From contig NMRA01000642.1 in the NCBI GenBank assembly GCA_002633005.1, positions 159,285 to 223,284 of the forward strand: 64,000 bases of DNA, in the 5' to 3' direction. Of the stretch, positions 10,570 through 60,767 are shown in pieces. The number at the start of each line of letters is the position of its first letter. Positions within the stretch are counted from its first letter, which is position 1. A program made the translations under genes and the position numbers. The notes under the pieces are model-generated. The model ran no database searches and was not told the DNA's origin. It saw only the letters and a program-made list of their open reading frames with translations. This DNA comes from Phoronis australis. Lineage: Eukaryota; Animalia; Phoronida.

Positions 10570-11719
10570 GTGCAGGTGGTCTGATGTCATTTGCGGTGCA
10601 TCAGACGTGCGCAGGCCTCATGGTTGGGCCCATTGCACAAAACACCTGAGCAAAGGCACGAGACCCCAATTATGGCTCCTCGTGAAGAAAGTTTTCAAGT
10701 CTGCCAGTCTCCTTTAGGAAAACGGACAGACGTTTCCATTTGTTGCCATGCACTATATGTTGTAGGCATGTAACAATGCCATCCAGTAGGTTGCTCCTTA
10801 GCCTATAAAAAGCTGGGCAAGACTCTACCAGGTGTTTAGGAGATTCTACGTCAGTACCACACTCGGGACACACAGGGCTCCTCATATGCCCAGTAATGTG
10901 TCTGTGTCGGGCTAGGTTGCAGTGGCCCGTCAAAATTTGAATGACGTGTCTTATACCCAATCTATCTAGACTCAGAAGGCTTTTTGAACCTTTTGGTTCG
11001 ATCACGTTGGGAAAATTCTCCTTGGTTTCTCGGCAGGAGTTAAGTGATGCCCACTGGGCTGCTGACTGGGTATGTACCCAGTTGCGTATACTCATCCTGC
11101 AACATCCGTAAGATACCGGGATAGCAGGTTCAGGCACAAAATGCAGAACGCTTGCTCCTATCTTTGCGAGTCTGTCTGCATTCTCATTGCCATCAATTCC
11201 CACATGGGCCCTGACCCAGCGTATATTGACGGTTCTTTCAATTGCAAGCTTGTTAAGCTCATTAATACAAGCATTAACACAACGAGAGTTGACCCTTAGT
11301 TTCTTTAGGGCTTTTATTGCTGCCTGGCTATCTGAAAAGATGATAATTGGCCGATTGCCAAGTTCAGTGTTATATTGTTGTGCCAATTGAGCAGCTCTAT
11401 TAATTGCAGTGATCTCAGCCTGAAACACCGTGGCAAGATTGCCCAACGATACCCAGTTTTCTGCATCTGCAACAGGAAGGCTTGGAAAGTAGACCCCAGC
11501 ACCTGTCTGGCCATTTTCCAGTTTAGAGCCGTCCGTATAACAAACCACCTCATTCTTGTGTTCTGCGGTAGGCCATCCATCGCCAATTTCCGTGAAGAAA
11601 TTGTTTGTATGATTTAAAGTTGTGACCTGGACATCACTAGGCATGTTCCATAGTTGCCCAGTCTTGGCCATTAGCTTATTGCAAACATTCCTTTGGCTTC
11701 CGTGTGCAACGGATTACAA
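10570..11719 (-). mobile_element. 5'-truncated non-LTR retrotransposon (LOA/R1/I group): RNase H, C-terminal Cys/His knuckle and 3' UTR
   Basis: ORF 10670-11671 carries YTDGSK, VFQAEI, FSDSQAA and WVRAHVGIDGNENADRLAK (RNase HI catalytic motifs), then LTGH and CPECG...ESPKHLVESC. No RT domain is present. Confidence 0.92.
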
Positions 11720-24346: not shown

Positions 24347-24406
24347 ATGGCAGCAAATAAGGATTTTGGGCAGGGATTTTACCTGAGTGGTGAAGAAAAG
24401 GAAAAG
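24347..24406 (+). CDS. Putative coding exon 1 (MAANKDFGQGFYLSGEEKEK)
   Basis: Start context caagATGGC. Twenty codons end at AAG|gtggga in phase 0 and join in frame to IRAAAETGD. A TGACGTCA motif lies about 90 bp upstream. No homology or transcript support is available. Confidence 0.6.
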
Positions 24407-25028
24407 GTGGGAATCATTTCATTATCTCACCTGTGTGTACTTTTTTAACTGTTTGTTTATTTGACCTTGGATACCTACATTACAACCGACTGCAGTTAAC
24501 CTGTTAGTCTATACAACTATCTTCGTTACCGATAAGAAGATCGAAACCAGTAGCTTTAGTGCATATATCTTGTGCCACTTTTTGTTACACAACTTGAAAC
24601 TTAGGCAAAGGTTGTTAAGCAAGTTTTCATAGCCATGTTAACGTTGTGTACTTAGTGGTCCCTTGTGTTTTCTAATCCAGCCAAACATTTACACGTAATA
24701 AGTTTGCATTGGTGAGTTAAGATGATCTGCAGGAGAATACATCGGTGCATCAAAGTAGGTGGCACGAGTCTTCTATTAAAATAATTTTAGAAACTGTTTT
24801 AGATCGTACATTTCAATTAATGCACAAAAGGTTTTGATCTGGCTGCAGTACTGACTGTAGAGGTGTGAAACGCACATGTACATGTAATTGGTGGGATACA
24901 TGTATTTTGTGGTCGGATATATTCTTCACTGAAGTATCCGCGTGTTTTCTTACACGAATGATGTAAGGGCTTAAAAGCAAACGTGCATAAATATTAACGT
25001 AAAGTAACATGTGTTTATACACATTGTA

Positions 25029-25082
<54 letters not shown>

Positions 25083-28000: not shown

Positions 28001-31000
28001 CACTGTACGCGAAATGTCGCTGCCATATTGTCCAGCTGACATTGTGATTTTTTAATGTAAAGCGATGTTCCCTGGTACTTGTCTTTACATGTTACGTATT
28101 GAAATCAAAATGAAAATAAAGAAAGAGCCGAGTACAATCAACAAACAAACACGTACATGTACATTTAGATGTGCACTGCCCTTATACAGTACTGCTTGTA
28201 TACATGAACATAAACCATTCAGTACATGTACATGTGCATCCGTGCATGTTTCGATCTAAGCAATAAAGCTGTCTAAGATCAGAAGTAAGGTCTGTAATGA
28301 ATGTTACGTTGCTATGACAACGAGGACTTTTACGAACAAAATAACTGAACATTCCTAAGATGCCAAAAGTGCCTTGTTGAATTATTCGATAGAATCAAAC
28401 CATTCTATTGCTTCTGAATGACGTAAAGATTCTAGACCATGACATGAGTTCAACTAACGTGTTAACAGGTGGAGCCACTGAGCTACATGCTGAATACAGC
28501 TTGAATAGGAACATTGGGGCTTTCAACATTCGGTAGTTGATTCTTGAGTTCAGTTCATTGGTGTCTCTTTGTCACGTGTTTTATGCGCTTTGATGGAAAA
28601 TTGCTTCATTGTGAAGTGTTGTGGAGCATGTCTCATACCTGATGATGATATAAGGTATTAGATCGAAACGTTGATCATGAACATGGTTATCATTTCCACA
28701 GTCAGCGTCCAATTAGGCTTATATATACATACACTTAATTCAAGGAGAGCACATGTAACTGAGTAGAGGCGTAACCGCAGTTTTAGTTCTTCGTGACTTG
28801 ATCCGTCACTCACCAATTAACTCACATTGTCAACAAGTCGACACATTCCAGTCTACAAGTCAGAATTTTTTTGTCCAAACAACCCCAGGTCTACCTTTTT
28901 TTAAAGAGACATAAATTCCATTTTGGTATTTTACTGGTTATTGTTTTTCAACATAAACTTAAAGGCATTTCTGACCTCTGAGTTTTACAAAATAATTTAT
29001 TGAAAGAGAAGCATTGGCGATAATCTTTGCTATGAAACGGTTCTATCCGTATTTGTATGGTCGGAAATTTACACTGATTACTGACAACAAACCACTTGTT
29101 GCAATTTTTGGTCCAAAAACCGACTTACCTATTTTAGCAGCAGAAAGAATGCAAAGATGGGCAATGTATTTGTCTGGATTCAACTACGATATCAAATTTC
29201 GTAATAGCAAATCCAACGCCAACGCGGACTGTTTATCTAGATTACCAGCTGAAGAATGTCAACAAGCTGAAAATGAATATGAGCCAACTTATGCTCAGGT
29301 ATTCCATGTTGATATTTTGCCTGTGGAAAATAACCTTATAAAACGNNNNNNNNNNNNNNNNNNNNNNNNNNNNNNNNNNNNNNNNNNNNNNNNNNNNNNN
29401 NNNNNNNNNNNNNNNNNNNNNNNNNNNNNNNNNNNNNNNNNNNNNNNNNNNNNNNNNNNNNNNNNNNNNNNNNNNNNNNNNNNNNNNNNNNNNNNNNNNN
29501 NNNNNNNNNNNNNNNNNNNNNNNNNNNNNNNNNNNNNNNNNNNNNNNNNNNNNNNNNNNNNNNNNNNNNNNNNNNNNNNNNNNNNNNNNNNNNNNNNNNN
29601 NNNNNNNNNNNNNNNNNNNNNNNNNNNNNNNNNNNNNNNNNNNNNNNNNNNNNNNNNNNNNNNNNNNNNNNNNNNNNNNNNNNNNNNNNNNNNNNNNNNN
29701 NNNNNNNNNNNNNNNNNNNNNNNNNNNNNNNNNNNNNNNNNNNNNNNNNNNNNNNNNNNNNNNNNNNNNNNNNNNNNNNNNNNNNNNNNNNNNNNNNNNN
29801 NNNNNNNNNNNNNNNNNNNNNNNNNNNNNNNNNNNNNNNNNNNNNNNNNNNNNNNNNNNNNNNNNNNNNNNNNNNNNNNNNNNNNNNNNNNNNNNNNNNN
29901 NNNNNNNNNNNNNNNNNNNNNNNNNNNNNNNNNNNNNNNNNNNNNNNNNNNNNNNNNNNNNNNNNNNNNNNNNNNNNNNNNNNNNNNNNNNNNNNNNNNN
30001 NNNNNNNNNNNNNNNNNNNNNNNNNNNNNNNNNNNNNNNNNNNNNNNNNNNNNNNNNNNNNNNNNNNNNNNNNNNNNNNNNNNNNNNNNNNNNNNNNNNN
30101 NNNNNNNNNNNNAGAGAGTTGTTGAATCAGATGTTACTGAGGAACCTAATGTTGAATTAAGAAGATCAACAAGGAATAGAAAACAACCTGTTAGATTTGG
30201 ATATGATGACTAATATGTTAGTGTGCATGTAATTGATATAGTGAACTTGATTAGTTTATTTTCTTAACAAGAGCCTACTTTATATTTAGTGAGGGAGAGT
30301 GTTGTTTACTTAGTCACACAATAACAGGATGTTTGTAGGTTGTTGTTGTTTATGAGTTCAGTAGTTTAATTGGTATTATGTCATGAGATTCCTAGTACAG
30401 GAAGTGTGTCATAGGTAACGCATCATATGTTGTTATGTAGTTGTGTGTATATATATTGTGATGATATGTAGAATAAATCAGTTCAGTGTTCAGTTCAATT
30501 CTGTTCGTTTCACTGCATAGTTAATGGAGTGTCTACTTTATTTGACAAAGTAAGATACACAACATCAAAGAATCCCAGTCAAACGTTTTTATCACCTATA
30601 GGTTTATTGGTTGGCAGTGAAACATGCACAGCCAAGTTTTCATTTACTGAGAAGACAGTAAATATTTTACAAGAAAACAGGTGTTCTATAACTTGATAAA
30701 ATATGCAAGCCAAAAACCTAGCATAAATGGAGTCACAGTTAGAATTGGTATACATTTTTGTCCAAACTTAGACCAAAATCGTTTTCAAAATCTTCCAATT
30801 TTATAGCACATCTACGAAACTTGGAACAATACATATTCATCTTACATGTACATGTATGTGTACGTGTATGCTATAGTCTCGATAGGGCCTATAACCGTCT
30901 GCAAAGTGTTGGTGCAACAATACGAAACTTATTCCTGGTCACGTGACACTGAATATATGGTCGTCGAAAAAATATAGACTAAGATGTCTTATAAGAGACT

Positions 31001-34000
31001 TTCAGCCTTTTGAAATACATGTATTAACACACCGCAAAAACACCGGCCACTAGCATCACACGTATAATAAGAGGCATTCTTTAGCATAATCATACGTATG
31101 TAAAGTAAGTTTTTCTCCACAACGTGATCTGGAAATTTTTGCGAACAACATGCAGTTTGACCTTTTTAAGTTGTTTTTAAGTAATGTTGTGGAGTTTCCA
31201 AAAATATGCGGGGGCATACCATATCCTAATTTGCGTTCTTTCTAATGTTAATGGACGATTCGCAATAGATATAAGGCCTTGACGAAAATGATTCTACACC
31301 TCCAAGTGATATAAGGTTTTACAAGACCATACATGTAACACCTACTGTACGAATTGTTTTGTTTAACGCTGCCTTTTCTCTTCAACGGCCAGGTTTCAAG
31401 TAACACTGCCTGCATGATTATATTTTATGTGATGTGTCTAACAATCGTGGCTTAAACCGACAACTTAATTACTCTGGGCGTGTAAGTTAACAATGGAAAT
31501 AATATGGAAGAATGTAAACAAAAATACTGCGATCGCTGTATGTAAAGAAAAGTGTTCTATTCGATAGACTAAAGTTGACCTTGAATGGAGTAACGTTAAA
31601 AGCATGTTTTCAAAAATGTACGTATACATGTGCATATAAATGAAGCGCAGACAACCTACAGGTACATGTACACCAAGCCACATCTTATTGCCTTTATATC
31701 GTCTTTTAAGACATATGGGGAATTATCGCCTAATATGTGAATCCAGTCATTCATCACGCTTGTCCTTTCAACCGACGTAATTTAATTCGCTACTGCACAT
31801 TCTTGAGCTGACGCTACAAAAACCTCAATACATACACCGGAAGCGATGCGTCGACGACAAAAGGCACTCCGAGACACTACACTGTATGTCGATGAACAAA
31901 TATCGACTCGAGACGATGCCCCCTACTACCCCAAAACAATGTTTAAGAAGGCAGGATACCAACTGCAGTTGGCAGCACGTTTTGGGCAACTGAAATTAAA
32001 CACAATACAGTGTCTCCGATGGGACTTGAACCCAGGTTATACGTGGGACGACCAAGCGTGTAAATCTTTGGGTCAAGAGGCAATTGCCGCCAGGCAAGCG
32101 GCTTAGAGAGGCTTTATCTGACTGTACTTGTCGGCACAACCGGAAGTCACGCTTCACACCACTACACACATACCGCGGAACAGGAGCGCTCACTGGCTTT
32201 TAGATCTCAGCGGCACCCTAGCGTCCTTGAATTTGACCTCAGCAACGCTCTCGTTTTGTTATAAATCCATTAGTACCTGGTGGAGAAAGCGGGGCCCAAT
32301 TGAAATGATGGTAAAATGGACACAGTAGGTCAAAATGGACATAATGGTCAACGTGGACACAATGGGTCAAAAGGGAGAAGACAGACACAAGTTTTCCTCG
32401 TTTTTAAAGTTGGTATAATGTTGTGCTATTATGAAGCTTCAATATGAAAACGAGTCAAAATTTGCGAAAAGTATTTCATATTGCCACCATAATCCACACC
32501 CAGGAACAACCCAACACTCCCTCAAATTTCATATCATCTAAGAAGATCCATAATGATAGTGAATTTACACTATTGGCTAAATCACATCAAGGTCCATATT
32601 GGGGAGTTGACTGTTACGGTCTAAAATATTTTTTCGACACTTACCAAATGCCAACCGAATCTCATGCAAAGAATTATTTAGTTATGCAAATTAAAAAAAG
32701 GAATCATCAGACTCGGACAGTGGTTGGGAAATGTATGCATGTTTTTGTCTATTATTTTCACTCTGTTTAGATATGACTGGGAATAACTTGAGTCACTTTC
32801 AGAGTCAATTAGATGAAGTTGTACTTAATCATTGAGAAATTGTATGGTTCATCATAAAACAGGCACTCGTTACAAAATTTGTGAATTCTGTGTTTCTAAC
32901 CCTCACCTACTTTAAAGAAGGTTAAAATCTAAAGTTCACACTCTGTAACGAAAAGAACTGCAAAATATGTCAGCCTAGGCAACACAGCAAATTATTCAAT
33001 ATCTAAACAAACCAAAAGTTTGGATATTGAATTGGTTCTGCTAACAAAATGTAGTGTAGTGTATGTCTGACAAAAACAAAACAATGGACATTATCAAATT
33101 TGTGGACAATAAAATGCCATTCAGGACTTGGCTAGTTCTGAAAATCCTAGAAGACACGTCATGTGACAACTGATGTTGCAGAGGCAAGTTCTCTATCTCT
33201 CAAAACAACTTCAACTTGCAACAAACCCACAAGTAGAAGCAGTTCAAAACTCGAGACCATCCCATACATTTGTAGCTTAGTCAACATTTGACGTCGGTTG
33301 ACTATGCGTAGTGTACGTACCTCCCTCCAAACAGTACAATTTTTACTGTTTACAAGTGGATCACTGGGCCTAACTATTTTGACCAACTGGTGAATGTATT
33401 GAAAACTAGGCAAATAGCACCAATAAAGTTTTTGAAAAAGTAGTAACTTTTCATTTTCTTTTTGTAAAAATCATTGCAATATAAGGAAGTTCTCATTATA
33501 CTGTGTTAAAATATGCAATGTATCATCATCTAGAAAAACTTGATCAGCACGGTAATAACCTTTTTTATTTTAGTATGTGATACTTCTTCAGTTAAATCAA
33601 AAACTTATTAAATCAACAGCTACCTTATGAATTTTTGCATGGTAGAAGTGGGTTGTGACCACAAGTTGTAGTGTACCTACCCTTTTATACAACTGCGATG
33701 CATTAGGCCATAATATTTTATTCGGTGGTTCTTGTGCAAAATATTTTAGATTACAAACCTGGAATGATGGTACTCTAAAACAACTCAGCTTTTAAAGTTA
33801 TATGACAACTTCATTTTTCACCAAAAGTGGCCACCGAAGATGGACCTTGATTGTGATTTGGCCGTAGGCGATTTAAAATCTATTTGTTATTATTTTCAGA
33901 TTAGAGCAGCTGCAGAAACAGGCGACTGTTCAACAGTTGTGGAGTATGTAAACCGTGGTTGGGATGTGAACCAAGAACTGTTTTTGTTGGTAAGTATTTA

Positions 34001-37000
34001 CACATGAATACTCGTCTGATCATTATTGCCTTGAAATGCACCTTGTAGCAAACAATTCTATGCAACCGCTATCTTAAAAGTTTAATTACGATGACATTGC
34101 CGCCCTCAGTGATTTTACGTTAAATATATCAGCACTGCAAACTGTTAACCAAAGCAACATGTGAACAGCGTGGTAAACAATACAAAGCAGTAATAACAAA
34201 ATATTCACATTTAACTACGGAAGTTATGATTATAACAGACAACTTTCTTACTTTAAGTTAACAGAACGCGTAATGTTGGTGAGAAAAACACAATGAAATT
34301 ATGACGTGGTCCTACGAACCACAAACTGGCAACTTCAGCGAGTAGAACTTTATAGACGACATTCTGCAAGTCATGAGAATCAGTTATTCAAAAGGTAAAT
34401 TTACCAATCTGGCATGGAATACTATTAATGGTATCTGTTACATCGTCGACTGCCTCCAAAACAAGGATCACGCAAACGATCTATGAAAGAATTAGAAACA
34501 GACCGATTTGGACAAATCCACAGGCGCACCGGAGGGACAAATTTGGAAAAATGTGTCTGATTTTTTCAGAGTTTATTAATAATCTTCACCTAAGTCTGTT
34601 GACAGATTTCCTTTGTTATTGTACGTCGGCATATGACTATAGGAAGAATGATTTCATTCTTCCCTCAAAAGCACTGGTGAAAATTGAACTTTTATAACGA
34701 TACATTTATATCATTTTTAATTTACTGTTTTTATTGGGATTGTGTGACATACATCTATGCCTTGATTATCGTGGATTTGTGAGTGGCTCGACTGTAAGAT
34801 GTTGGAGTTAAGAAAGATATGCTGGGAGTGAAACCCGAGAGTTCTCTAGCTGTCTTGCAGCTTGGAAAAACTATCCAAATTCACATTGTCTAGTTTAAAA
34901 TACACGGTGTAATCTCGCAATGGGCCCAGCGATGTACTAGCGTTCTTGAACTCTATCCAGGTCGAGTGATATTCAAATTTTGTACTGCATATATTCTTTA
35001 CTTTGTCGAGAACGTGAGATGCTAACACCTAAATGAAATTTTCATTACAATGACTTTTTGTACCACTTATTGTGTTCGACCATTTCATAACACCAGTAAT
35101 GATTAATGCAACCTTGATATGATAATCTGTCCAGCACAAGCAAAGGTCCGGACCATCTCCATGTACTTGGTGGATTTTATCACCATAGTCAAAAAGGTTA
35201 AATCGTCTGTACGTACATGTACCAAATGATTTGAAACCTGCATTAACGATGCAATACAAATTCCAATAGGTGAATTAGAATTTATTTTTTTGCACACGGG
35301 CGTGTCAGCGTGGTTGAAATTACATTTCATCATTTACATGTGTACTATCATGCCTAGATCTCTATACACATGTTTTGGGGAATAATTTCACTATCCAGGT
35401 TCACATAAATATTGTCAGTGTGCAATTGGGGCGTCTAGAAAACGTAAGATCAACACTTTATCTCAGCCTTGAACCTTTCATGTGCTTAGTACGGACTATG
35501 AGTTGAAGTTAGATGCAACTGCAGTTGGATAGAGAGGCTTAGAGGGTGTTTTCACGATCTGGATCAATTTTGACTGTATCAAATAATTTACCATTCACTA
35601 AGTCATGCATGGTTTTGCGGCTCATGTCTGTCATGATTGAAGAAGAGCAGAAATATGACACCACCCTTCGGTACCCCTACGTAAGCAAACCTGGTTAGTG
35701 AGGGTTTTGAAGACACACCGTCTAGTCCTACTACCCGATTGGATTGTTACAGTACACGTACATGTACATGTATACAGTGAATAGTGCGTTCAGAGTGTCC
35801 GATTCGATAAGAGAAAACTTTGCTCAAGAAGAAATCTTGAGAAACCGTGTCAAACGCGGATTGATTATCTAATATTAAACCCATTTTTCATCTTATTATC
35901 GTATCTCGTGACCATTTTCGTACAGTTGAGATACGGTACTCTTTCCACTCATAAAACCAAAGTGAATTTGGTAATTTATTGCAATTTATAGAAAGTGAGG
36001 TCTTCGTACGTTTTATTTGATGTCAATTTAAAAGAAAGAATTTTGAAATGTTTCAGCTCTGCAGTGATTCTCAATTCTTTTCTAATTGATTACCATAATT
36101 TAAGTTTCAAAAAGTAGGGTAGGTGCCTGTTAGTGGAATTTTGTTTTATAAATGAGTGGTCGGCGAAGGCATATCTTTTATGCTTGTTTAATTTTTTATT
36201 TGTTATATAGACGGTGCAGTCATTTTTGTTTACACCAGTGTTTTCTAGTAAATGTATGGCAAGTGCTAGGGTCTCCTGGAAAATAGACAGGTGAACTGGA
36301 CTGTTTGCAAACAAATGTGGGTATTCAGCTGTTGTTTTATTTGTGAAGGAATCAAGAAAAGGGCACTTAAACTGTGCTCGTTAATTCCCATCTTGTGATT
36401 TAATAACAAGATATACCAGTAAGTTGATTTTGTTTCTTAGTCGCGTTTTGTTTATGAAAGAGCAATATTCATTTGCCTTGTTGAAACATTACATGCATTT
36501 GTGTATGTAAAGGTTTCATATTGTTCTGGTGCGGTGTAAAACTTGGCTAACTCGCTTTTAATAGTTGGAAATTGTTTTAGGTTGTTAAAAATTCAACACA
36601 TAGTTTGTTTCAAGTTTGATCTAAATAAGATATAAGTTTTGTTGATCTCGCGTTTGACGTTGTTGTTGAATCAAAATTTGGGTCTTCACTTTAGTAGTTT
36701 AGGATTTCCAAAATTGTTTTTATTTACTGATAACATTTGTCCTAGACGTTGTCGCAAATAATAGTCTTCCGATTTGCTGCATTCAATGTCTAAGACCATT
36801 AATTTCCAATTTCTGTCGTGTAGAACTGGTTCATTGTTACAAGTTTTAAGGCAGCTTCGTTATCACAGTTCCCTATAGGTGACAGGACCTCCAGCTAAGT
36901 TTCACGGTCTTCTGCATACCAAATGCCCTTACTGGCATCTAAGTCACCCTTTATTATCACTAGGGTAGATCAGTAACCAAACGTCGTCTCAAATCATTCT

Positions 37001-49000: not shown

Positions 49001-52000
49001 AGTGGAAAGGTCATCAAAAAATTAATATGTACACATGTAATTTCTCCTACAATTTTAAAGAATTCCTGTTCATATTGGTATACGGGCTGCTGTCAGTAAC
49101 TTCCCATAATTCCAGTAATACGCACGCGCAGAGTCCGTTATTGTCACGCCGTGACAATAATCTTTCTAGTTCTTATTCTTATTCTTCTTCTTATTCTTCT
49201 TCCGACCAACTTTGAGGCTTAATAACTCCAAATTGGGTGCAGGTACGGTCTTTAAACTCAGCATATGACTTTTGACAGTATATAAATTTTGATTAGTTAC
49301 AAAATCATATTCCATATTGCACCGGTAGAGGTCGTTTGGTGCAAGGGTCATATAATTTTCAAAATGCTACTCCTCGTTCAGTTTTAAAGCTATCTTTTTC
49401 AAATTCGGTACACAGGTATAAGTCAATATGACAATTTTAAAAATTACTTTTCTAAGTAATCGGGTAATCCAATCAGGTGAAATAGGTCAAAGGTCATTAG
49501 CTGCAAACTAAAATTTTGAGCTAGAGACTTTAAATTGACAGGTCTAATTGCGACAGGTAAATCAAATCGGAATCCAAAGTTTCAGGTCATTTAGTGCAAA
49601 CATGGGGTCATTAAGTGCATTTTTCTTCTGAAAATTTGACCTTTTCAATCTGCAAGTATTCTGATGTGTCAACCGTTAGACAACTGTGATTCTCAGCGTT
49701 AAACACATTTTCCATGGGCTTTGCAGTAATTCTCCTAAAGATGCTTAAAATGCACCGGATAAGGTCAATTAGTGCAAAGGTCATGTAACGTTCAAAATGT
49801 TATATCTTACGTTTTTCATGGAATTCTTTTCAATTTCAGCGCACAGGTATATGTCAACATGAAAATTTAAAAAATTACTTTTCTAAGCAATTGGGTCATC
49901 CAATCAGGTTAAACAGGTCAAAGGTCATTAGGTGCAAACTATAATTTTGAGCTAGACACTTTAAATTCACAGTTCTGATTGGCACAGATAATTCAATTTG
50001 GAATCCAAAGTTTCAGGTCATTTAGTGCAAATATGGGGTCATTAAGTGCATTTTTCTTCTGAAAATTTGACCTTTTCATTCTCCAAGTACACTGATGTGT
50101 CAACCGTTAGACAACTGTGATTCTCAGCATTACACACATTTTCCATGGGCTTTGCAATAATTCTCCTAAAGACGCTTATAATGCACCGTATAGGGTCAAT
50201 TAGTGCAAAGGTCAGTTAACGTTCAAAAAGCTATATCTCTCACGTTTTTCAAGGAATTCATTTCAATTTCAGCACACTAGTGTATGTCAACATGCCAATT
50301 GAACAACCTACTTAACTACGCAATAGGCCTAACCAATCAGAAAAATAGGTCAAAGGTCATTGAGTGCAAAATTAAAATTTTGAGCTAGAGACTTCAAAAT
50401 TACATATCTGTTTACTAAACGCGATTGAGTATGAATTCTAAATTTTTGGGTCATTTGGTGCATCCATTGGGTCATTAGGTGCATTTTTCTTCTGAAAGTT
50501 TGACCAATTAATTCATGTTGTATTAAGTGCTTATGGCAAAACATCTGTGATTCTTAGCATTAACTATACTTTAAATTGGTTGTACAAATATTCCCTCACT
50601 GGGGTTCATAATGCACCGGAAGAGGTCAGTTAGTGGAAAGGTCATCAAAACATTAGCATGTAATTACTCCTACAATTTTAAAGAATTTCTTTTCATAGTT
50701 TGGTAAACGGGGTTGCTGTCAGTAACTTCCCATAACAATTCCTTTAATACGCACGCGCAGAGTCCATTATTGTCACTCTGTGACAATAATCTTTCTAGTT
50801 CTCCTTATTCTTCTTGCGACCAAATTTGAGGCTTAAAAACTCGAAATTGGGTGCAGGTACCGTCTTTAAATTCAGCATATGAGTTTTGACAGTATATAAA
50901 TTTTGATTGGTTATATAATCATATTCCATATTGCACCGGAAGAGGTCGTTTGGTGCAAAAGTCATATAATTGTCAAAATGCTACTCCTCCTTCAGTTTTA
51001 AAGCTATCTTTTTCAAATTCGGTGCACAGGTATAGGTCATCATGAAAATTTGAAAAATTACTTTTCTAAGTAATCGGGTCATCCAATCAGGTGAAATAGG
51101 TCAAAGGTCATTAGGTGCAAACTAAAATTTTGAGCTAGACACTTCAAATTGACAAGTGTGATTACCACAGGTAAATCACATCGGAATCCAAAGTTTCAGG
51201 TCATTTAGTGCAAACATGGGGTCATTAGGTGCATTTTCCTTCTGAAAATTTGACCTATTCAATCAGTGAGTATTCTGATGTGTCAACCGTTAGACAACTG
51301 TGATTCTCAGCGTTAACCACATTTTCCATGAGCTTTGCAATAATTCTCCTAAAGATGCTTAAAATGCACCGGATAAGGTCAATTAGTGCAAAGGTCATGT
51401 AACGTTCAAAATGTTATATCTCTTACGTTTTTCAAGGAATTCTTTTCAATTTCAGCCCACTGGTGTAATTCAACATGTGTACCAATTGAATACCCTACAT
51501 TACTTCGCAATAGGCCTAACCAATCAGAAAAAAATAAGTCAAAAGTCATTGAGTGCAAACTAAAATTTTGAGCTAGAGACTTCAGAGTTACGTATCTGTT
51601 TACTAAGTGCGATTGAGTTTGAATTCTAAATTTTCAGGGCATTTCGTGCACCCATGGGGTCATTAGATGCATTTTTCTTCTGAAAGTTTGACCACTTCAT
51701 TCATCTTGTATTCTGAAGTGCTTAAAATAAAACATCTGTGGTTATTAGCATTAACCACACTTTTAATCGAGTTAACAATTAATCCCTCATCGGGGCTCAT
51801 AATGCACCGGAAGAGGTCAATTAGTGGAAAGGTCATCAAAAATTAATATGTAATTTCTCCTACAATTTCAAAGAATTCCTTTTCATATTGGTAAACGGGT
51901 TGCTGTCAGTAAATTCTCATAATATTTCCAGTGATACGCACGCGCAGAGTCCGTTATTGTCACGCCGTGACAATAATCTTTCTAGTTTTCTACGTTACCC

Positions 52001-55000
52001 ATGATGTTTGCAATGAATGTAATCTGTGGAGAATGTGGAAGTTCTTAAACTCTTTCGACAATAACGTTTTGGGGATGTTTTATAATAAGTTTTTTTCGCA
52101 TTACACTTTATAGACTTAAATGTACGAGCTAATAGAATGGAGACCCTTTACGTATTCAGTTATTTCCTTCATTATTAAAGATGTTATATTACAGTTAAAT
52201 TAATTCACTTTCCTTTTCTATGTGACTTTTCGGCAACATGTACTTTTATCTATGGCTATGGTGCAACNNNNNNNNNNNNNNNNNNNNNNNNNNNNNNNNN
52301 NNNNNNNNNNNNNNNNNNNNNNNNNNNNNNNNNNNNNNNNNNNNNNNNNNNNNNNNNNNNNNNNNNNNNNNNNNNNNNNNNNNNNNNNNNNNNNNNNNNN
52401 NNNNNNNNNNNNNNNNNNNNNNNNNNNNNNNNNNNNNNNNNNNNNNNNNNNNNNNNNNNNNNNNNNNNNNNNNNNNNNNNNNNNNNNNNNNNNNNNNNNN
52501 NNNNNNNNNNNNNNNNNNNNNNNNNNNNNNNNNNNNNNNNNNNNNNNNNNNNNNNNNNNNNNNNNNNNNNNNNNNNNNNNNNNNNNNNNNNNNNNNNNNN
52601 NNNNNNNNNNNNNNNNNNNNNNNNNNNNNNNNNNNNNNNNNNNNNNNNNNNNNNNNNNNNNNNNNNNNNNNNNNNNNNNNNNNNNNNNNNNNNNNNNNNN
52701 NNNNNNNNNNNNNNNNNNNNNNNNNNNNNNNNNNNNNNNNNNNNNNNNNNNNNNNNNNNNNNNNNNNNNNNNNNNNNNNNNNNNNNNNNNNNNNNNNNNN
52801 NNNNNNNNNNNNNNNNNNNNNNNNNNNNNNNNNNNNNNNNNNNNNNNNNNNNNNNNNNNNNNNNNNNNNNNNNNNNNNNNNNNNNNNNNNNNNNNNNNNN
52901 NNNNNNNNNNNNNNNNNNNNNNNNNNNNNNNNNNNNNNNNNNNNNNNNNNNNNNNNNNNNNNNNNNNNNNNNNNNNNNNATGTTAGTTTTAAAGATCAAG
53001 TGACGTCGCTAAAAAGATGGCGTATATGTCATTGGGCAGGTAATTAGCGTTTGTTAGCAGCTTCAGTATCAGTGTTCGGATTTTTGTTGAGTGTATTACC
53101 AAACATTCACATGTACGTTTCGGCTAAATGAAGCAGTGTCCACTGTGGCTGACAAAGCCTTTTCTTAATTTTCTATTAGCAAAAACAGTAAACCTAGCGA
53201 CTGTTCACACATGATTTCTATTCACTTATGTAGCTGCCGAGGCATAACGTAAATAATTTGAAGAGGCCTAGAACGCGAAAAACGGGCTAAATTGCGTTAT
53301 TCATTCAGGGTTTTTCTGCCACTGAAACAAAAGCCATTTATCCAATGTGTTCGTAACATTTTATATTTAGTGTTGATGACAAAGTGTTTTTGTTTTAGTT
53401 TCAAATTTCAAAAAATAGCTGTCAACTGTTCGCCACTTATCAATTTTTCTCCAGCAAAGCACGTCTGCTTATTTCGTATTACAAGGCACAGACATAGCAC
53501 ATTCCGCTCCGATGGAAAAATGATCTTTGACCCTTGATAGAAACAACACAATCTTGACTTCAAGCAGCAGCCAGTCCAATTAAGAAACAATTGTTTGAAA
53601 TTAGTTATTAATGTATCGTAATATTCAAACATTCTAAAATTCGTTAAGTACATGTATGAAAGCCAAAAACAGAAGAAAGAAAACAAGGCGACCAAATCCA
53701 ATCAATGACCTACCATTGTTACAAATGCTGATACCGACAGAGTGTATTCATCTCGTCTCTTCTTCATTTTTGGGAGAGTGTGAGGAACTACGGAATATGT
53801 TTTCTTCATTATATACAGTTTAGAAAAACAAAATTTTAATTAAATGTATCGCAACATTACCATGGGTATATTGTTAACAAGTATACAATAGATGGCAAAT
53901 AATAGAAATGTGAAATTCTACACATTCATTTTAACGTGCTTTCTTCCTATGTTTAGTAGAACAGAGCCATCGTGGAACTCTTCCCGTGACAACGATAACA
54001 CGGTCACAATGGTTGTCATTGTCTACTACACAGGCCTTGTGGATGACATAGTGCTTTTCAACACGTTAGGAAGTTAACTAACATGACATCTGTCAGCCTT
54101 CAAGATGGGCCTGAAAATTATAAATTTGTGTGATTTGTAGGATGGAGCAACTGCTTACGATGTCTGTGGCGACCAGTGTAATGTGTTTTTTAACAAGGTC
54201 GACGATGGGACTATCGAGAAAATAAAGAAAGTCCTTAAGGTATGTAGTGGTGAAAAAATATTCAGATTTTTGTTTTGAATAGAAAAATGTGTTTTTATGA
54301 TTTATCAGCGTTATGAAGGAATCTCAGTAGTATTGCCATCAATTATCGAACCTCCAAAGGCAACACTTTGCATGTACTGAGGTGTATCTCGGCAGAAGAT
54401 AAAACAGAAGCATCCCGCTCAAGAGCTCACTGTGTTGGACTTCCATGTTTATCTGCATTGTATTTACAGGGCAGTCACAAAACTACATTACCATGTTGCA
54501 AGGGAAGACATACTTACAATATCGTCATGCCAATAATATTTTATGAGAATTTACTTGCGTTGTTATCAATTATCGCGTTGGTGTCGTTTAAGAAAATGTG
54601 TTACTCTTCTTAAACGCCATTTGCTCCGTTGGGAAAAAGTCCCGAGTTTCAACACTGATCCCTTCAGAGATGTAATTCAGATTTAACTGTACATGTAGGT
54701 CTCGTGAGTTTACTAATGTATGGCGTGTATTTAATACATTGTATAATTGTTTTTTGGTTATAAATATACATCTTTGTAACGCAAGTGCGAGGAAGGTTAT
54801 ATCTCCTGATCTCTTTGTCATTTACACAGGTCAGGAGACAATTTAATAACATGTTTGTGTGAATATTTGTATTATTTTAATTGGCAATTGGTTGCCTGCA
54901 GGAGCGCATGCGACTGGAACAGCAAAGCGGACCACCTCCCCCAAATGAAGACGCCCATAAAGGTCCTGCATCCGTTGCTGAAAAAGCGAACGTGTTATTA

Positions 55001-58000
55001 GCAGCGCTGGAAGATTATATAAACGCAATAGGTGAAAGCATACCTGATGGTGTGGTAAACGTGAACGTACAAGTAAAACGAAAGGACGACAGGACACTGG
55101 AACTATGTAGCGTGGATACTACATTGAAGGGTATTGTATGCTGTGACGTTTAGTATCACTGTACGAGGTTGAGAAAAGTGAAAACATGACTATGTTTCAG
55201 ATTTCTTACATCCAACTCGATCGGCTTACGGAAAATAATACATTTAGTTTGAAATTCGTAAAAACATATTTTGTGTTTTTTCGGGCATAAGCTTGTCTGT
55301 TATTTCTCATACCAATCTTTTCGTAACTGAATATGTGATCTTCACATGTTAGAGCATCGAGGACGCATTGCATGTTGGCAATTTTTAATCCCTCAAATCG
55401 AACCGTCTCCCTCGAACTCGGCTCCAGGATATGATGGTAATTGTTTCTATAATTTTCAGAGAACTCGTAACTCCGTATAATAACAAAAAATAATAACATT
55501 GTTAAACATTGCCTGAAACTAAGACAAAAAGAAAGTTCTAGTATTCAGCATCTATGAGCATGCTCAAACATAGACTATTGCAAGAGATACTGCAATAAGG
55601 CAACTTTAACTTCGTGGACAACTACTTGAATGACAGTTAATGCTTCATAAATCCACAGAAAATCTTGTGCGCTTAAAGTAGTACCATACATTTTGGTTTT
55701 TCCAAAAGATTTTTCCATTTTGACTTCCGGCTTTCAGGTGCATGCGCTTAAGTTCCAAAATTTGACGGTTTTGAGCTCAGATTATAGACGCTACTTTACT
55801 TTTTTACCAAAATATACCGAACTCATTTATTTTGCACACCGTATACCGTCAGTGACGTTCTGGTGGAAGTAAGCCTGGTAGAGTGGTGTTTATGTTCTAA
55901 AAATGTACACTTTTAATGCTGTAAATTTTACTTTTATCAAAGCGTTTAGCCATCGATCTTGATAAAGTAACACTTGGTTAGTCGAATACATCTCCATATT
56001 CTAAAAAGTTACTCAATACTTTACTGTAACTGTTAGATCACTTTATTTTCAATTGTTTGACTTGTGTTTGAGCACCATAATCAAGACAAGTTGTACTCAA
56101 ATGTCCTCATAGGTGCAAGTGGCTATTGATATTAGTCAAACAGGCAAAGATCTGCAATTACATGAAGGTGCACACGCTCCATTACGTGGCTATACAGTTC
56201 CACTTGATTTTGCATATAAATCAACACGTGACGAAATTGGGAAATGAAAATTTCAACTTTCCTGACATGTCATATGTTCTCAGAATAATTACTTTTTGCA
56301 AAACTTTCTATTGCAGTGACTCCTAGTTGGAAGTCTTCAAACAGAATTTTAATATTGATGAAACAAATACCTGTAAACGTATTTACAATGAGAATTAAAG
56401 TGAAAGTCACTGTATAAACTTGTGAACAAAGACATACACCAGTTGGAATGAAGAAATCTTGATTATTGAAATTATTATTGAAAACACATTTGACAACAAG
56501 TCTCAAATTGACATGACATCCCGGTCTGCTTTGCAATAAATACTTGGAAGTGTCTACTACCAGACTTTACATGGATGTATAAGATATAGCGAACCACGCG
56601 CAGTAGTGTTTTTTTAAAACAAAGCATAACCTTCCAGGTAGGCCTACTATGCAGGCCAATTTTATGTCCTTGTTTTAAGTTTATTTTTGGAACTTGTTTA
56701 TTAAATGTATCACTTCTTGCCTAATGGAAACCGGTGTGGAGGTGTAAAATGAACTTTCTTCTCGGCATGCTTAAATTGTGTCAATGATCACCACAAAAGT
56801 GCAACAAACTATGCAAATTTTCAATATTCCAGTTTAGAAAATGTATTTTGTGTTGCACCATGTAATATTAAATGTCTATATGTCGACATATAACTTTTCA
56901 GACAGTGCAAGGTTATTATTTTCGGTAGTGTTGTGATTTAAAATAAAAAATAAACTTTTATAAAAACCGGTTTTACTGCACCGAAATCTGCCTGAGTGTG
57001 AGAAATTCAAGATACAGGTATTTGTTTCAAACAACTAATCCAATGAATAACCTTGTTGGCACACCTTATTGAATTGTTCACTGATCAAGTGGAAAGTAGG
57101 CCCAATGCGTTCTGCTTGTAAATTGCTTTGTGGGGGAACTGGACACCCCAGATGTTTACGATATGTGTGGTTGTATTAGTCGCAACACTACACTGTATGA
57201 TCCAGCCAGACGGCTGTTACTCTTTCAGTCTAGGGAGAAAACCTGGCAACGAATGCATGGTTTTGAAAAAAGGCACGGTCTGGGTCTTCAGTATTTGGTC
57301 ATTTACTGCAACATTATCGAAGTGTCGTTACCATGCATCTTTTTTAATTTCAGAATATTTTCCACGCTCTGTTCCCGTAAAAAAGCAGTCTGGTCTTTTT
57401 GGCACGATCCCTGACAGGGGAGAAAAGGTGATTTCAGCACACCTCCAAAAGTCTCTGACCAATGCAGTATCAGCAGTAGCCCAACTTAAGCGGTCAGATG
57501 GACTTGGGGTGGGGTCGGGCTTCCGAGTCGGGCTCACTTACGTGATGACGAACTATCACGTGTATAAGTTGCTGAGTCTTGATGTTGCCAGTAAGTATAT
57601 CGATGGTTGATTGATTGATTGTCGAGGTTAAATCTACCTGTATGGTAAGTTGCTGTTGTACAGTTTGTCTACATTCGTTCAGAAGTACATGGTGTAGGTC
57701 AACATGTCTCAGAATTAGCATGGAAGTACAAATATATAAGGACATGGATTGTCTGCAGCTTACTCTCTGTAGTAGTATTATTGCCTCATTTTATTTCCGT
57801 TTGAGAATGAGACAAGTATGTTTCGAAATAAAGCGTGTGTCATTTAATCATGTTTTGTTCAGTTGTTTCACCGATGTTCTGTTGAGTGTAGAACTTTGTT
57901 CCGAGGATACGAAATGAACGGAATAAAGGCTGTTAATGACGACAAGTGCGCTGTATTTAATCAATTTTGCACACCAAAAAAACTATAATAGGAACTATGC

Positions 58001-60767
58001 AATGTTAATTCCGACACAAAATTTCATGATTTTTTCAAATAAAGGAAATTTTTGTGAATTAATTCCTAAAGGTTAGGCTCTGGCATTGATTTGTTTGGTT
58101 TTGCGTTAGTAATGAAACGACAATTAGTCTTCACCTGCTCATCTCAGTCACATGTGTTTTACAGTGAATAAAAACGCAGCAATCTTTTACTTCGACAAGC
58201 GATCAGAGCAGTGTACACCAAAAGCAATACCTATCGGGTCTCTGGTAGCCTACAATGAAGAGCTCGATGTGGCTGTATTGGAACTGGATTTCAACTCGCC
58301 TCTTACGGCAGCATTCACCAACTGTGAACAGATCAACAAGCTCTCATTACCGCCAGCATTGACAAACTTCAAGGCTATTTCTCAACAAGAACAAGTACAT
58401 TTTGCTGGACATTCAGACAAAACTGACCATAAAGTTGTGCAAGTCCATTGTCCTGTTGTCCTCATGGATCCAGCAGATTTCTTGAAAACGGTAAAAAATG
58501 ATGACATCATTTCACGCTAAGTAGTCACGTGTTTATGCAGCATCTGGTGATTGGCTGTACAGCAACTTAAAGCCATTCACAGTGAAGCACGTGTCCGTTT
58601 CTTTCACTTACCAAGACAATAATCCCTTAACGACTTGATCAGTGAAAAAATTGTAACTTAGTCCGAAAATCCTTAACTCAAGATTGTAATTTTTGTTGAC
58701 TAAACCTTCCGTCGCCGGTCACACTACGACACAGGCTAAGTAAGCACGTAAATAATTACTTTTACGCCGTTAAGTGCTGTAAATAATCAATTTACGTCGT
58801 TCATAATTAATTTGCACAAGTAATTTACATGCCTAACGTTCACTCACTGTGGGCATCATATACTGTCTCTTCAAATGGTCACGTGAGCGGGCCAGCCTGT
58901 TTCAAGTGCCGCCGCGTGCTATTGTAATACAGATATCAAGGTTATGGGGAACCTATCAACAAGTCTATGTATTTAACAAATTATCTAGAAAACTTTTTTA
59001 ACTATAAGTCAGCATATTTTCTGAAGGTAGAGAAGTTTGTAGAATTTCCTTATAACCAATCCGTCACTATACCGTGTCATGTGTCCCAGTCTTTTCAGTA
59101 AAATTTAAAAAATAGGAACATTCATTGCAAAACAGCATCATCAATAACTCTATCAAACTTCATTTGATTTCCTAAAACCCCTTTGATGTGGTGATGTAGT
59201 ATCATCATCTGTCTACATCAACCTCTGGCATGTTTACATTGGCGTTGTAGCTAGAGGTTGGTGCAAATAGACCAATAAAGTTTAGGGTGTTTATTTGATA
59301 TTATGTTTCAAAAATCCTGTTACAGTTTTCTGAAACACAAGTTCGTTTTGGTCGCACGCAACTTGAGAATTCATCGTGAAATCATAAAAACCAGCCTATT
59401 TTGAAAGCCTCCCATCTACCAAGTGGTAGATTATTAAATGCCATTATATACCTAAGCTTGTTTTGGAAACATTATTGAGAATAATATCAGAGGGTTTCAC
59501 GTAAATCCGCACAGCCCTTTCCGACAGAGACATGATGTTCAGAAGTTACCTAAAAATAGACATTTTCATTGGGTCCTACTTCACCTTAAACTTCGCGAAA
59601 TACAGGAACAATATTACATACGTTTCAATACAACACAGATGGCCATCTAGTCGCAGCTCCAGTCACTTCAACATTTGATCAGGTCAGGGGCCCTGGACGT
59701 CAGGTTGGCTAGATATATCCTCAAATTGGGAACACCCCGTTATTCAGTCATACAATGGTTACTTAAATGTAGAATTTTATCCCCTCCTAGTGCTATACCC
59801 GTATTGAGTAATATCGAGCTGGCTTTGTGTCTTGCCTCGTTAGCCTATCATAAGCTCTGAAAGTGTGAAGGTGCGGAAATACTTCAAAATGGCTACATCC
59901 GGGTGCCAGTTGTGGTGCATAGCTGGATGCTGCGTACAGTTTCAGATAGTGACTCATTGTCTGTTATGATACGTTATTTGTCGCAAATAACATGGACAAA
60001 CATCAGTGAATGATTGAAACATGGCTGGTATTCAACGTCAAGAAACTGCTACGTCGACAAATAATACTATTTATTTCTAATAATGGGGTCCTTTTTATTT
60101 AACCGGTCATTTGTGATTGTTGCCAGATGATACCCTATCCTGTATCTCTTTTATATTTAAATTGGGACGCATGGTTAGCACATTGTGCTCTTTGTGCGGT
60201 TTTATCGGTTTAGTTTTGTCCATAATGAGCAAAGGTCTTTTAGGGGCCCCAGAATTTAATACGTCGATCGGCTGAATGGATATGTTGTACTGTTATCAAT
60301 CGGACAGTTGGCTAAAGTTCGGTTACACGGTTAGCAACGAACGCAAGAATATAGGCGACATATTTTCAGATTTTCAATGATTGTATGCAACAAATGATAA
60401 ATCACTCATTTACACATTTCAGATTAGCGAGCTCAAACAATGGGCTCAGAAAGTATTTCCTAAGGGGTTTGAGGCATTCTCAAAAATCGACGACCCAAAG
60501 CGAACACTTTACAGAACAAGTCCAAAATTTGGCCATGGCAGCTCAGGAAGTCCTGGTTTTGTACCCGATGACCAACAGGAGGCTAGCGTGGCTGTGATAC
60601 AAACACGTGGATTCCCGGATCTGCCAGACGATCACTCAGTGCCTCAAAATCAAATCAAGGCTCGCATGGTTGAGCAAGGCATTAGGATAGAGGCAGTGTA
60701 TGATTTTCTCCATGCCACCCACCCAGTATTATGCAGGGATATTTTTGGTCTTGTTAGACCCAGTTAG
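24347..60767 (+). CDS. 12-exon gene: ankyrin-repeat protein fused to a C-terminal FAM111-like trypsin-fold serine protease (~626 aa)
   Basis: Exons 24347-24406, 33900-33989, 42271-42366, 42933-43031, 43592-43690, 44248-44346, 44881-44982, 54141-54239, 54902-55130, 57354-57590, 58165-58490, 60423-60767. All introns are GT..AG and the phases (0 x8, 1, 1, 0) join into one frame with no internal stop. TPLH ankyrin motifs lie N-terminal to the protease motifs TNYHV, ELDVAVL and GSSGSP. Extra exons could be hidden, for example in the gap at 52268-52979. Confidence 0.85.
25029..25078. repeat. (AT)n microsatellite in intron 1
   Basis: Read directly from the sequence. Confidence 0.95.
28627..28686 (+). 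ncRNA. Possible minimal (Penelope-type) hammerhead ribozyme motif
   Basis: Core CTGATGA (28639-28645), weak stem II gat..atc, then CGAAAC-GTT (28664-28672). The flanks catgt(c)tcat and atgaacatg can pair. Confidence 0.4.
29346..30112. other. Assembly gap
   Basis: Run of N inside the Gypsy element. Confidence 1.
30300..30564 (+). repeat. 3' LTR (265 bp)
   Basis: Begins TGTTGT immediately after the polypurine tract and ends ACAACA. Internal AATAAA at about 30472. Confidence 0.75.
32010..32090 (-). mobile_element. Possible tRNA-derived SINE head
   Basis: The minus strand has a B-box-like T arm, CCTGGGTTCAAGTCCCA. No intact cloverleaf is visible. Confidence 0.35.
32571..33868. mobile_element. 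~1.3-kb decayed TIR element ending about 30 bp before the exon 2 acceptor
   Basis: GGCTAAATCACATCAAGGTCCAT at about 32575 is an imperfect inverted copy of ATGGACCTTGATTGTGATTTGGCCG at about 33840. Both ends sit next to TA. Confidence 0.55.
33900..33989 (+). CDS. Exon 2, first ankyrin repeat (IRAAAETGDCSTVVEYVNRGWDVNQELFLL)
   Basis: Acceptor ttattttcag|, donor |gtaagt, 90 nt, phase 0/0. Shows the ankyrin pattern AAxxGD...V..xG.DVN. Confidence 0.8.
42271..42366 (+). CDS. Exon 3, ankyrin repeat (DDTALHCAAQVGHTEVVRVLCKAGAKVNKQGW)
   Basis: Acceptor tttctgcag|, donor |gtaata, 96 nt. Consensus ankyrin TALHxAAxxGHxEVVxxL..GA.VN. Confidence 0.92.
42933..43031 (+). CDS. Exon 4, ankyrin repeat A (EDNTPLHCAALNGRTQTVKCLVEHNATVDVRNE)
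   Basis: Acceptor ttacatag|, donor |gtaatt, 99 nt, phase 0/0, TPLH motif. Confidence 0.92.
43592..43690 (+). CDS. Exon 5, ankyrin repeat B (GGKTPLHCAAQRGHTQTVKCLVEHNASVDVRNE)
   Basis: Same splice context as exon 4, 99 nt, TPLH motif. Confidence 0.92.
44248..44346 (+). CDS. Exon 6, ankyrin repeat C (MGLTPLHCAAQRGHTQTVKCLVEHNATVDVRDL)
   Basis: Same splice context as exons 4 and 5, 99 nt, TPLH motif. Confidence 0.92.
44881..44982 (+). CDS. Exon 7, ankyrin repeat (DGDTPLHLASHRGQAAVVELLVREGSCDAAAVNK)
   Basis: Acceptor tttactgtag|, donor AAG|gtatct, 102 nt, GDTPLHLA consensus. Confidence 0.92.
46117..51985 (+). mobile_element. Four nested copies of a Helentron/DINE-1-like non-autonomous element with internal ~425-bp tandem repeats
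   Basis: Four heads TATTACTCTG(C/T)GCGTG at about 46117, 46179, 46257 and 46312, followed by a (TTATTC/TTC)n tract. Four bodies each end in CACGCGCAGAGT (reverse complement of the head motif), the hairpin TTATTGTCAC-nnn-GTGACAATAA and CTAG, at 47984, 49169, 50798 and 51985. Confidence 0.85.
52268..52979. other. Assembly gap in intron 7
   Basis: Run of N. Confidence 1.
54141..54239 (+). CDS. Exon 8, C-terminal ankyrin cap (DGATAYDVCGDQCNVFFNKVDDGTIEKIKKVLK)
   Basis: Acceptor atttgtag|, donor AAG|gtatgt, 99 nt. GxTAYD is typical of a terminal ankyrin repeat. Confidence 0.85.
54902..55130 (+). CDS. Exon 9, Pro-rich linker and small unassigned region (ERMRLEQQSGPPPPNED...SVDTTLK)
   Basis: Acceptor cctgcag|, donor G|gtattg. 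Phase 0 in and phase 1 out match both neighbouring exons. Lies within ORF 54881-55153. Confidence 0.8.
57354..57590 (+). CDS. Exon 10, protease N-terminal part with catalytic His (SAVAQL...GSGFRVGLTYVMTNYHV)
   Basis: Acceptor ttaatttcag|, donor A|gtaagt, phase 1/1. GSGF...TNxHV is the HtrA/V8/FAM111-type trypsin-like motif. Confidence 0.92.
58165..58490 (+). CDS. Exon 11, protease middle part with catalytic Asp (EELDVAVLEL...VHFAGHS..K....CPV)
   Basis: Acceptor ttttacag|, donor ACG|gtaaaa, phase 1/0. Resembles the FAM111 pattern ELDYAVLKL...IIGHP..K...C.V. Confidence 0.9.
60423..60767 (+). CDS. Terminal exon 12, protease C-terminal part with catalytic Ser (FGHGSSGSPGF...EQGIRIEAVYDFL...DIF*)
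   Basis: Acceptor acatttcag|, phase 0, GxSGSP nucleophile motif, stop TAG at 60765-60767. Confidence 0.92.
   Translation: MSELKQWAQKVFPKGFEAFSKIDDPKRTLYRTSPKFGHGSSGSPGFVPDDQQEASVAVIQTRGFPDLPDDHSVPQNQIKARMVEQGIRIEAVYDFLHATHPVLCRDIFGLVRPS

Follow-up and report, generated by a model that had tools for sequence, protein, structure and literature searches.

The DNA window analysed here, that is, the whole stretch of 64,000 nt from Phoronis australis contig NMRA01000642.1 (assembly GCA_002633005.1; all positions below are window positions), carries what we read as a split gene encoding an ankyrin-repeat array and, in the same chain, a Trypsin_2-type protease. Our favoured explanation, to which we assign a rough probability of 0.55, is that this gene is real and expressed and that its ankyrin solenoid likely picks the partner for the protease to which it is attached. 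The window sequence resembled animal nuclear DNA, with about 38% G+C, retroelement fragments and tandem arrays, and it contained two assembly gaps (N 29346-30112 and N 52268-52979). Using open frames and splice signals, 12 exons (E1 to E12) were placed on the + strand between 24347 and 60767, with AG/GT at every internal border. The exons summed to 1881 nt, and the spliced model gave 626 codons plus a TAG stop, with consistent phases and zero internal stops. This bore out the 12 phase-consistent exons of an earlier prediction for the same DNA (hereafter, the original prediction), and the sequence features named in it were all present where it had placed them. A tblastn search of the window with the product, combined with a profile of the gene's own ankyrin exons, found in that window neither a further copy of an exon set nor a missed ankyrin exon.

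The downstream exons of the model were joined in RNA. Three RNA-Seq runs sharing the species label (X1, X2 and X3) were mapped to the intervals 42000-61000 and 53000-61500, and split reads with GT..AG ends were found at 4 of the 11 junctions, covering the chain E8>E9>E10>E11>E12. E8 (54141-54239, +), which resembles an ankyrin C-cap by pattern, was spliced to E9 (54902-55130, +) at 54239>54902, with 0, 1 and 3 reads in X1, X2 and X3, respectively. E9 encodes the linker, with the GPPPP motif and a predicted amphipathic stretch, and it was joined to the first protease exon, E10 (57354-57590, +; GSGF...TNYHV, His393), at 55130>57354 by 0, 1 and 5 reads. This junction had been singled out for an RNA check in the original prediction and the split reads confirmed it. 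The joints at 57590>58165 (3, 6 and 1 reads) and 58490>60423 (10, 5 and 10 reads) then connected E10 to E11 (58165-58490, +; ELDVAVLEL, Asp438) and E11 to E12 (60423-60767, +), which carries GHGSSGSPGF with Ser553, the C-terminus and the TAG stop. In nearly all exon reads the first mate lay on the - strand, which in most stranded libraries corresponds to + strand RNA. From these four spliced joints it follows that the cap-like ankyrin exon E8, the GPPPP linker and the protease share one mRNA. RNA depth ran on beyond E12 to at least 61500, and the covered stretch 60767-61500 would be the 3′ untranslated region. A minor GT..AG joint, 60005>60423, also led into E12 (1 read in X1 and 3 in X2). Upstream of 60005, a long open frame that would be in phase with E12 was not seen, and this isoform may be unproductive.

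The protease assignment was based on the motifs and on profile comparisons. In the predicted protein, GPPPP lay at residue 258, TNYHV at 390, ELDVA at 436 and GSSGSP at 551. E10, E11 and E12 each contributed one catalytic residue (His393, Asp438 and Ser553, respectively) and the Gly two places before Ser553 was kept; the intact His/Asp/Ser triad and the GPPPP linker that had been predicted were thus found at these motifs. To obtain profiles, 61 Bacteroidota genomes and E. coli K-12 were searched with Pfam Trypsin_2, and the open frames at the resulting loci entered iterated rounds seeded with DegP/DegQ/DegS. With the mixed profile of 57 rows, the spliced model scored 24.8 bits (E 7e-10, single target) and the protease region alone 27.3 bits, while the best of 2000 shuffles reached 7.2. 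A 22-row non-HtrA profile (profile B), consisting of 22 domain stretches from 21 bacterial open reading frames (ORFs), matched the spliced model at 38.4 bits (E 5.1e-14) and the protease region alone at 41.0 bits, compared with 9.0 for the best of 2000 shuffles. The profile B alignment was a single one, which placed profile positions 9-165 on residues 357-558, spanned all three exons and put His, Asp, the G-x-P/S block and Ser on conserved family columns. All of the profile B rows scanned (20/20) reached Pfam Trypsin_2 themselves. By hhalign, the three exons were also compared one by one with alignment A2, which held 20 of the 22 rows (the 24-residue second stretch of L058 and the YdgD fragment were left out). 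Residues 50-71 of E10 aligned with columns 34-55 at the His block (E 3.9e-6), residues 22-87 of E11 with columns 77-128 at the Asp block (E 1.4e-4) and residues 23-88 of E12 with columns 146-214 at the Ser block (E 1.1e-3), so that the A2 columns followed the order E10, E11, E12. Since the profile match extended over both barrels with the triad in order, we assign the predicted protease, located in the C-terminal 300 residues, to the PA clan as a Trypsin_2-type (PF13365) domain with its triad in place.

Structure-based comparisons gave additional leads. The named look-alikes of E11 in the ESM Atlas were Trypsin/Trypsin_2 clusters (0.92-0.84) and those of E12 all belonged to the PA clan (0.95-0.91), both of which we take as leads only. 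When the products of E10, E11 and E12 were given to ESMFold2 as separate chains, a packing score of 0.71 was obtained, as against 0.00 for the best of three controls; at least 87% of contacts were shared between runs, and the partner predicted local distance difference test (pLDDT) values were at least 69. The three products are thus predicted to pack as one unit, with no fold named. The mark applied to this score was reached by 51/78 solved complexes and by 2/108 mismatched pairs, in a calibration unlike the present job. The pass may therefore mirror likeness to the abundant solved chymotrypsin-fold structures, which is likeness and not proof.

Upstream of the linker, the ankyrin part was examined exon by exon. 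Pfam Ank (PF00023) matched 5 of the 10 ORF pieces scanned, with E values from 1.8e-10 to 1.8e-8, and these five were E3 to E7, whose scores of 34.6-40.9 bits exceeded the cut-off of 21.1 and support their assignment to the Ank family. They comprise repeat 1 in E3 (42271-42366, +; E 5.5e-9), repeat 2 in E4 (42933-43031, +; E 1.8e-8), repeat 3 in E5 (43592-43690, +; E 1.8e-10), repeat 4 in E6 (44248-44346, +; E 7.4e-10) and repeat 5 in E7 (44881-44982, +; 34 codons, E 1.4e-8). E2 (33900-33989, +; 30 codons, AG/GT, phase 0) resembles an ankyrin N-cap by pattern, and neither E2 nor E8 matched Pfam when scanned singly. The predicted array consequently has five proven repeats, E3-E7, and two putative, pattern-based caps, E2 and E8. 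Of the approximately six repeats plus a cap originally proposed, the five in E3-E7 stood, while E2 and E8 lacked a Pfam match of their own.

The array also showed signs of exon turnover. The units of E4, E5 and E6 were spaced about 659 bp apart, E4 being the first of the three in tandem, and had flanking intron sequence in common. The E4 and E5 units were nearly identical across the exon and both flanks, and the E6 unit shared the upstream flank and the exon; we read these units as recent exon duplications. In the RNA, an E4>E6 joint skipping E5 was carried by 9 reads of X3, and E6>E6 back-joins by 7 and 8 reads of X1, suggesting that the number of repeats varies. From the end of E6, 14, 16 and 36 reads (X1, X2 and X3) passed into a different ankyrin exon, one not present in the window. 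Within E3, a T>C change at 42320 was present in every covering RNA read (8/8, 7/7 and 44/44 in X1, X2 and X3). Together, the recently duplicated tandem ankyrin exons and the differing ankyrin exons in transcripts suggest a fast-changing binding surface, and such a surface would fit, without proving, a conflict target such as a pathogen protein. Beside E4, the intron stretch 42634-42932 and the neighbourhood of 43310 had RNA depths of 13-73, with a T>C change at 42736 in every read (23, 35 and 173) and an inserted C at 42864. This RNA-covered stretch is likely a repeat element or the retained intron of a variant copy.

Variant transcripts were likewise seen over the linker. Reads fitting E8 or E10 ran into E9-like sequence that was about 67-77% like the reference by hand count, leaving loose ends behind 54230 (25 reads in X3) and before 57354 (4 reads in X1 and 8 in X3). 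In X1, three reads entered E8 from an upstream exon whose end translates as K-G-A-R-A-T-V-V-N-T, which is ankyrin-type and absent from the window. The variant reads suggest that another copy, or else a highly divergent allele, shares the exon order of the reference. Because they keep the order E8-like>E9-like>E10, they support the architecture for the family, while they weaken the assignment of every read to this locus.

The start of the protein is less firmly placed than its end. The proposed first coding exon, E1 (24347-24406, +), begins with an ATG, comprises 20 codons and has a GT donor; its sole Pfam signal was a sub-threshold DUF3990. An alternative in-frame ATG is located at 33840, 60 nt upstream of E2 and in the same ORF (33768-34007), which would give a 20-residue N-terminus equal in length to that of E1 without the 9.5-kb first intron. 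On account of this rival ATG, 24347 is regarded as a candidate start only. The most hydrophobic 19-residue stretch of the predicted protein had a Kyte-Doolittle mean of 1.07, so that no hydrophobic N-terminus was found, and no signal peptide, membrane segment or [IV][VI]GG (IVGG-type) motif was present in the protein. The absence of a signal-peptide-like N-terminus and of IVGG, both part of the original prediction, was accordingly reproduced by the Kyte-Doolittle and motif scans. Given that neither a signal peptide nor a membrane segment was seen, an intracellular location, in the cytosol or the nucleus, is predicted for the protein, whose mass would be about 68 kDa. The linker between its ankyrin part and its protease has about 110 residues, and the protein ends 73 residues past Ser553. 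The sole Pfam signal of E9 was PDZ_4, which lay in the linker and below the cut-off (E 0.045).

In the favoured explanation, E3-E7 and the 5′ exons would reside on the same mRNA as E8-E12 and the enzyme would be active. The ankyrin array could work as an adaptor in cis, presenting a chosen protein to the active site. The solenoid would bind this protein and either deliver it to, or be relieved from, the protease carried on the linker. We further propose, by analogy with FAM111A, that the N-terminal part may keep protease activity low until partner binding; PMC10920703 describes the free FAM111A protease domain as more active than the full-length protein. A cutting target or an immune role for the predicted protease is offered as a hypothesis only. 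The ankyrin and the Trypsin_2 domains are each already known, and in the literature that we searched, outside of which much literature lies, no animal protein was found that combines an ankyrin array with an intracellular protease of the Trypsin_2 type. If the ankyrin arm chooses the target, the gene would provide a simple and testable one-chain model of targeted proteolysis, for which the exon duplications and the variant transcripts would supply a natural series of binding surfaces for comparison.

The alternative that survived best is that the protein is an immune sensor, in which the ankyrin array would shut the protease until the binding of a foreign or altered-self protein frees it, and cuts in host substrates would lead to death or signalling. 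We hold this possibility tentatively, at well below even odds. It shares the architecture of the favoured explanation and draws on the ankyrin exons, which are recently duplicated and vary among transcripts, and on those exonic differences of the reads from the reference that are best supported, of which 18 of 28 change a residue and 10 are silent. In addition, the bacterial Trypsin_2 domains matching the protease are fused to EAD1, EAD11, TPR or FHA modules, and trypsin-like peptidases fused to effector-associated domains (EADs) are treated as conflict-system effectors in PMC8195603. Examples are a Bacteroidota ORF at 1044-2132 (+) of L056, with EAD1 (E 7.2e-6) and a Trypsin_2 protease, and another at 128-1090 (+) of L065, with EAD11 (E 2.7e-7) and a Trypsin_2 protease; other ORFs of this set carry FHA or TPR modules. 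These bacterial fusions are a parallel, drawn by analogy, and not functional evidence on the phoronid protein. Against an immune sensor, the single exons scanned with Pfam gave Ank only and no death, TIR, CARD or NACHT module, the variation may be derived from a paralogue, and the evidence fits a substrate adaptor equally well. If foreign proteins were sensed, the gene would represent a protease arm of invertebrate innate immunity linked to the bacterial trypsin-effector fusions. A broader version of this proposal, which we regard as doubtful, is that the gene belongs to a multi-copy or polymorphic family of cytosolic ankyrin-array proteases acting as one-chain innate sensor-effectors, the ankyrin exons recognising pathogen proteins and their binding freeing the Trypsin_2 protease to cut the invader or trigger death. 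Among animals, such a family would correspond to the repeat/EAD-trypsin conflict effectors of bacteria.

Several observations weigh against the favoured explanation, some at the level of the protein and others at that of the RNA. When E10, E11 and E12 were searched singly, no Pfam family and, by phmmer, no solved protease in the PDB was matched at E <= 10; the PDB search returned chance matches, such as Tob1 (E 0.27) and a cell surface protein (E 0.018). Queries with E11, E12 and E10 found no relative among 5.8 billion protein clusters, since none of the 124, 80 and 78 word-sharing candidates, respectively, passed at thresholds of E <= 0.001, 0.01 or 10. AlphaFold2 models of the single exons were too poor for a fold search, with pLDDT values of 41.8 for E12 and 39.7 for E11. 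In the RNA, the joint 44982>54141 (E7>E8), which would tie E3-E7 to the rest, was not among the joints listed for the three runs. The same applied to E1>E2, E2>E3, E3>E4, E4>E5, E5>E6 and E6>E7, so that 7 of the 11 junctions had no read support among the joints listed; E1 and E2 lie upstream of the mapped 42000-61000 interval. RNA depth in the bin of E7 was very low (0.28-1), and the reads entering E8 came from an ankyrin exon other than E7. Furthermore, 83/96, 76/80 and 110/161 reads (X1, X2 and X3) were only 95-99% alike to the reference, and the reference-type E8>E9 form was in the minority in X3, with 3 reads versus 25 variant ones. Some of the RNA support may hence belong to a divergent allele or a paralogue and not to this very locus, and the excess of 18 residue-changing over 10 silent differences may reflect relaxed constraint as well as diversification.

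Two candidates from wider searches with the protease exons were also rejected. The sole locus retrieved with E12 from genome contigs (L007) was a histidine kinase found through a chance 8-mer. A locus retrieved with E11 from metagenome contigs (L070) is a bacterial Trypsin_2 ORF sharing the exact 8-mer VAYNEELD, and with 22 residues aligned it was discarded as a close relative. A search of 401 Bacteroidota genomes with E12 yielded 11 matches at a per-genome threshold of E <= 0.1, no more than chance would give.

The RNA observations bear directly on the alternative of two genes, in which E1-E7 would form a separate ankyrin gene and the protease gene would start near E8, past the 9.2-kb intron that is repeat-filled and gapped. 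The original prediction had united the ankyrin and protease exons in a single gene; E8-E12 were found joined in RNA, and the link across 44982>54141 was the part left without a listed joint. Besides this missing joint, the contrast in depth between E7 (0.28-1) and the bin of E4 (13-73) favours two genes, and the tandem array and 712 N within the intron make a misassembly possible. On the other hand, E8 in the model lacks its own start codon context, stands in phase 0 behind an AG and could not make an ankyrin domain alone. The three X1 reads with the ankyrin-type end K-G-A-R-A-T-V-V-N-T imply that transcripts of the family have ankyrin sequence before E8, and the high depth by E4 is partly intronic, given the variants at 42736 and 42864, and repeat-element-like. 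Taking both sides together, we consider two genes unlikely.

Low RNA depth could also point to a decaying or non-catalytic member, that is, a little-used paralogue serving, for instance, as a scaffold. The minority share of reference-type junction reads, the ratio of 18 residue-changing to 10 silent differences and the lack of a close relative in the protein-cluster searches with E10, E11 and E12 are in line with this idea. We nevertheless judge it improbable, given that the frame stays open through 626 codons in 12 exons and every splice site is intact, that His, Asp, Ser and the Gly two before Ser are retained and that reference-type joints do occur.

Regarding the affinities of the protease, the bacterial non-HtrA Trypsin_2 (PF13365) proteins were the only family with a measured match, at 38.4 bits over His, Asp and Ser, and they are likewise one-chain fusions to repeat or adaptor modules (TPR, FHA, EAD1 and EAD11). 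Identity to them was about 20-25% over 115-145 aligned columns, ankyrin repeats occurred in 0 of the 20 scanned, and the phoronid gene differs from them in its N-terminal module and its animal-type introns. Pairwise phmmer comparisons of the spliced model with E. coli DegP, DegQ, DegS and YdgD, with two Nal1_C-like ORFs and with 272 bacterial ORFs gave the His block only, and not significantly. An HtrA/DegP/DegQ/DegS (S1C) identity was rejected on the 4.4 bits that the spliced model scored with an HtrA-only profile of 35 rows and on the lack of a PDZ domain. HtrA proteases share the PA-clan fold, the G-S-G...T-N-x-H-V block and the Asp block, whereas the triad spacing is much longer in the phoronid protein, where His and Ser are 160 residues apart; for DegP we take this distance to be about 105. 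The grouping with HtrA that would have spoken against the original prediction was not observed, given the 4.4 bits of the HtrA-only as opposed to the 38.4 bits of the non-HtrA profile. When the A2 profile was run against the PDB, only HtrA/Deg chains were among the best 60 of 679 matches, which is uninformative on FAM111A and NAL1.

The original prediction had also called the protease FAM111-like, and this part was not supported. According to PMC9798293 and PMC10920703, FAM111A and FAM111B are intracellular S1-family proteases whose Pfam call is Trypsin_2, and PDB entries 8S9K and 8S9L contain the FAM111A protease domain. The phoronid protein resembles FAM111A/B as a predicted intracellular Trypsin_2-type protease with a putative regulatory N-terminal region and a long His-to-Ser spacing, 160 residues against 156 in FAM111A (H385 and S541 in PMC10920703). 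It differs in having ankyrin repeats in place of two ubiquitin-like domains and in lacking a PIP box by motif scan of the predicted protein. The context of the serine is also different: F-F-F-G-x-S in FAM111A, with F536-F538 and G539 before the serine (PMC10920703), and F-G-H-G-S-S here. Searched singly, E10, E11 and E12 did not match the chains 8S9K and 8S9L at E <= 10, in a per-exon phmmer test of low power. The missing ubiquitin-like domains and PIP box are not decisive, as marine invertebrate FAM111A-like proteins without ubiquitin-like domains are listed in PMC9798293. Overall, FAM111 kinship was unsupported by the per-exon tests, and a distant tie may exist. That the gene is a FAM111 orthologue with a replication-fork or antiviral role like that of FAM111A, its ankyrin repeats replacing the ubiquitin-like domains, is very improbable in view of the unmatched FAM111A domain, the differing serine context and the absence of a PIP box, notwithstanding the shared protease type with a regulatory N-terminal part, the similar triad spacing and the invertebrate relatives mentioned above.

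Other protease identities fared no better. A secreted S1A trypsin was rejected for want of a signal peptide and an IVGG motif, and a transposon or viral protease was rejected because the retroelement fragments are located at other places and frames and splicing connects the protease exons with ankyrin exons of host type. For rice NAL1 (NAL1_N PF25608, Nal1_C PF25819), no single exon matched Nal1_C at E <= 10, and E10-E12 did not match NAL1 chains in the PDB in per-exon phmmer searches of low power. Nal1_C was found in 2 of the 401 Bacteroidota genomes, and a profile of the two ORFs scored 0.2 bits with the spliced model, which is a weak test. With NAL1/Nal1_C-like proteins only the N-Y-H-V His block is shared, namely with these two Bacteroidota Nal1_C-like ORFs, and a NAL1 link is not supported by these comparisons.

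Finally, the surroundings of the gene are rich in repeats. A tandem array at 45800-52150, with TRF units of 431-433 bp, takes up the greater part of the 9.2-kb E7-E8 intron, and the gap N 52268-52979 is located just beyond it. A repeat of about 1.4-2.8 kb was also apparent in the ORF list. RNA depth over the array reached 115, far above that of the exons of the gene, and many repeat-to-repeat joints swamped the joint table; the array is probably a dispersed, expressed repeat family. In intron 1, a fragment of a long terminal repeat (LTR) retroelement pol at 28996-30213 (+) matched Pfam RT_RNaseH (E 4.6e-15) and was broken by N 29346-30112. Upstream of the gene, a 347-codon open frame at 10670-11713 (-) matched RNase H (E 7.4e-16) and RVT_3 and is probably part of a non-LTR retroelement.

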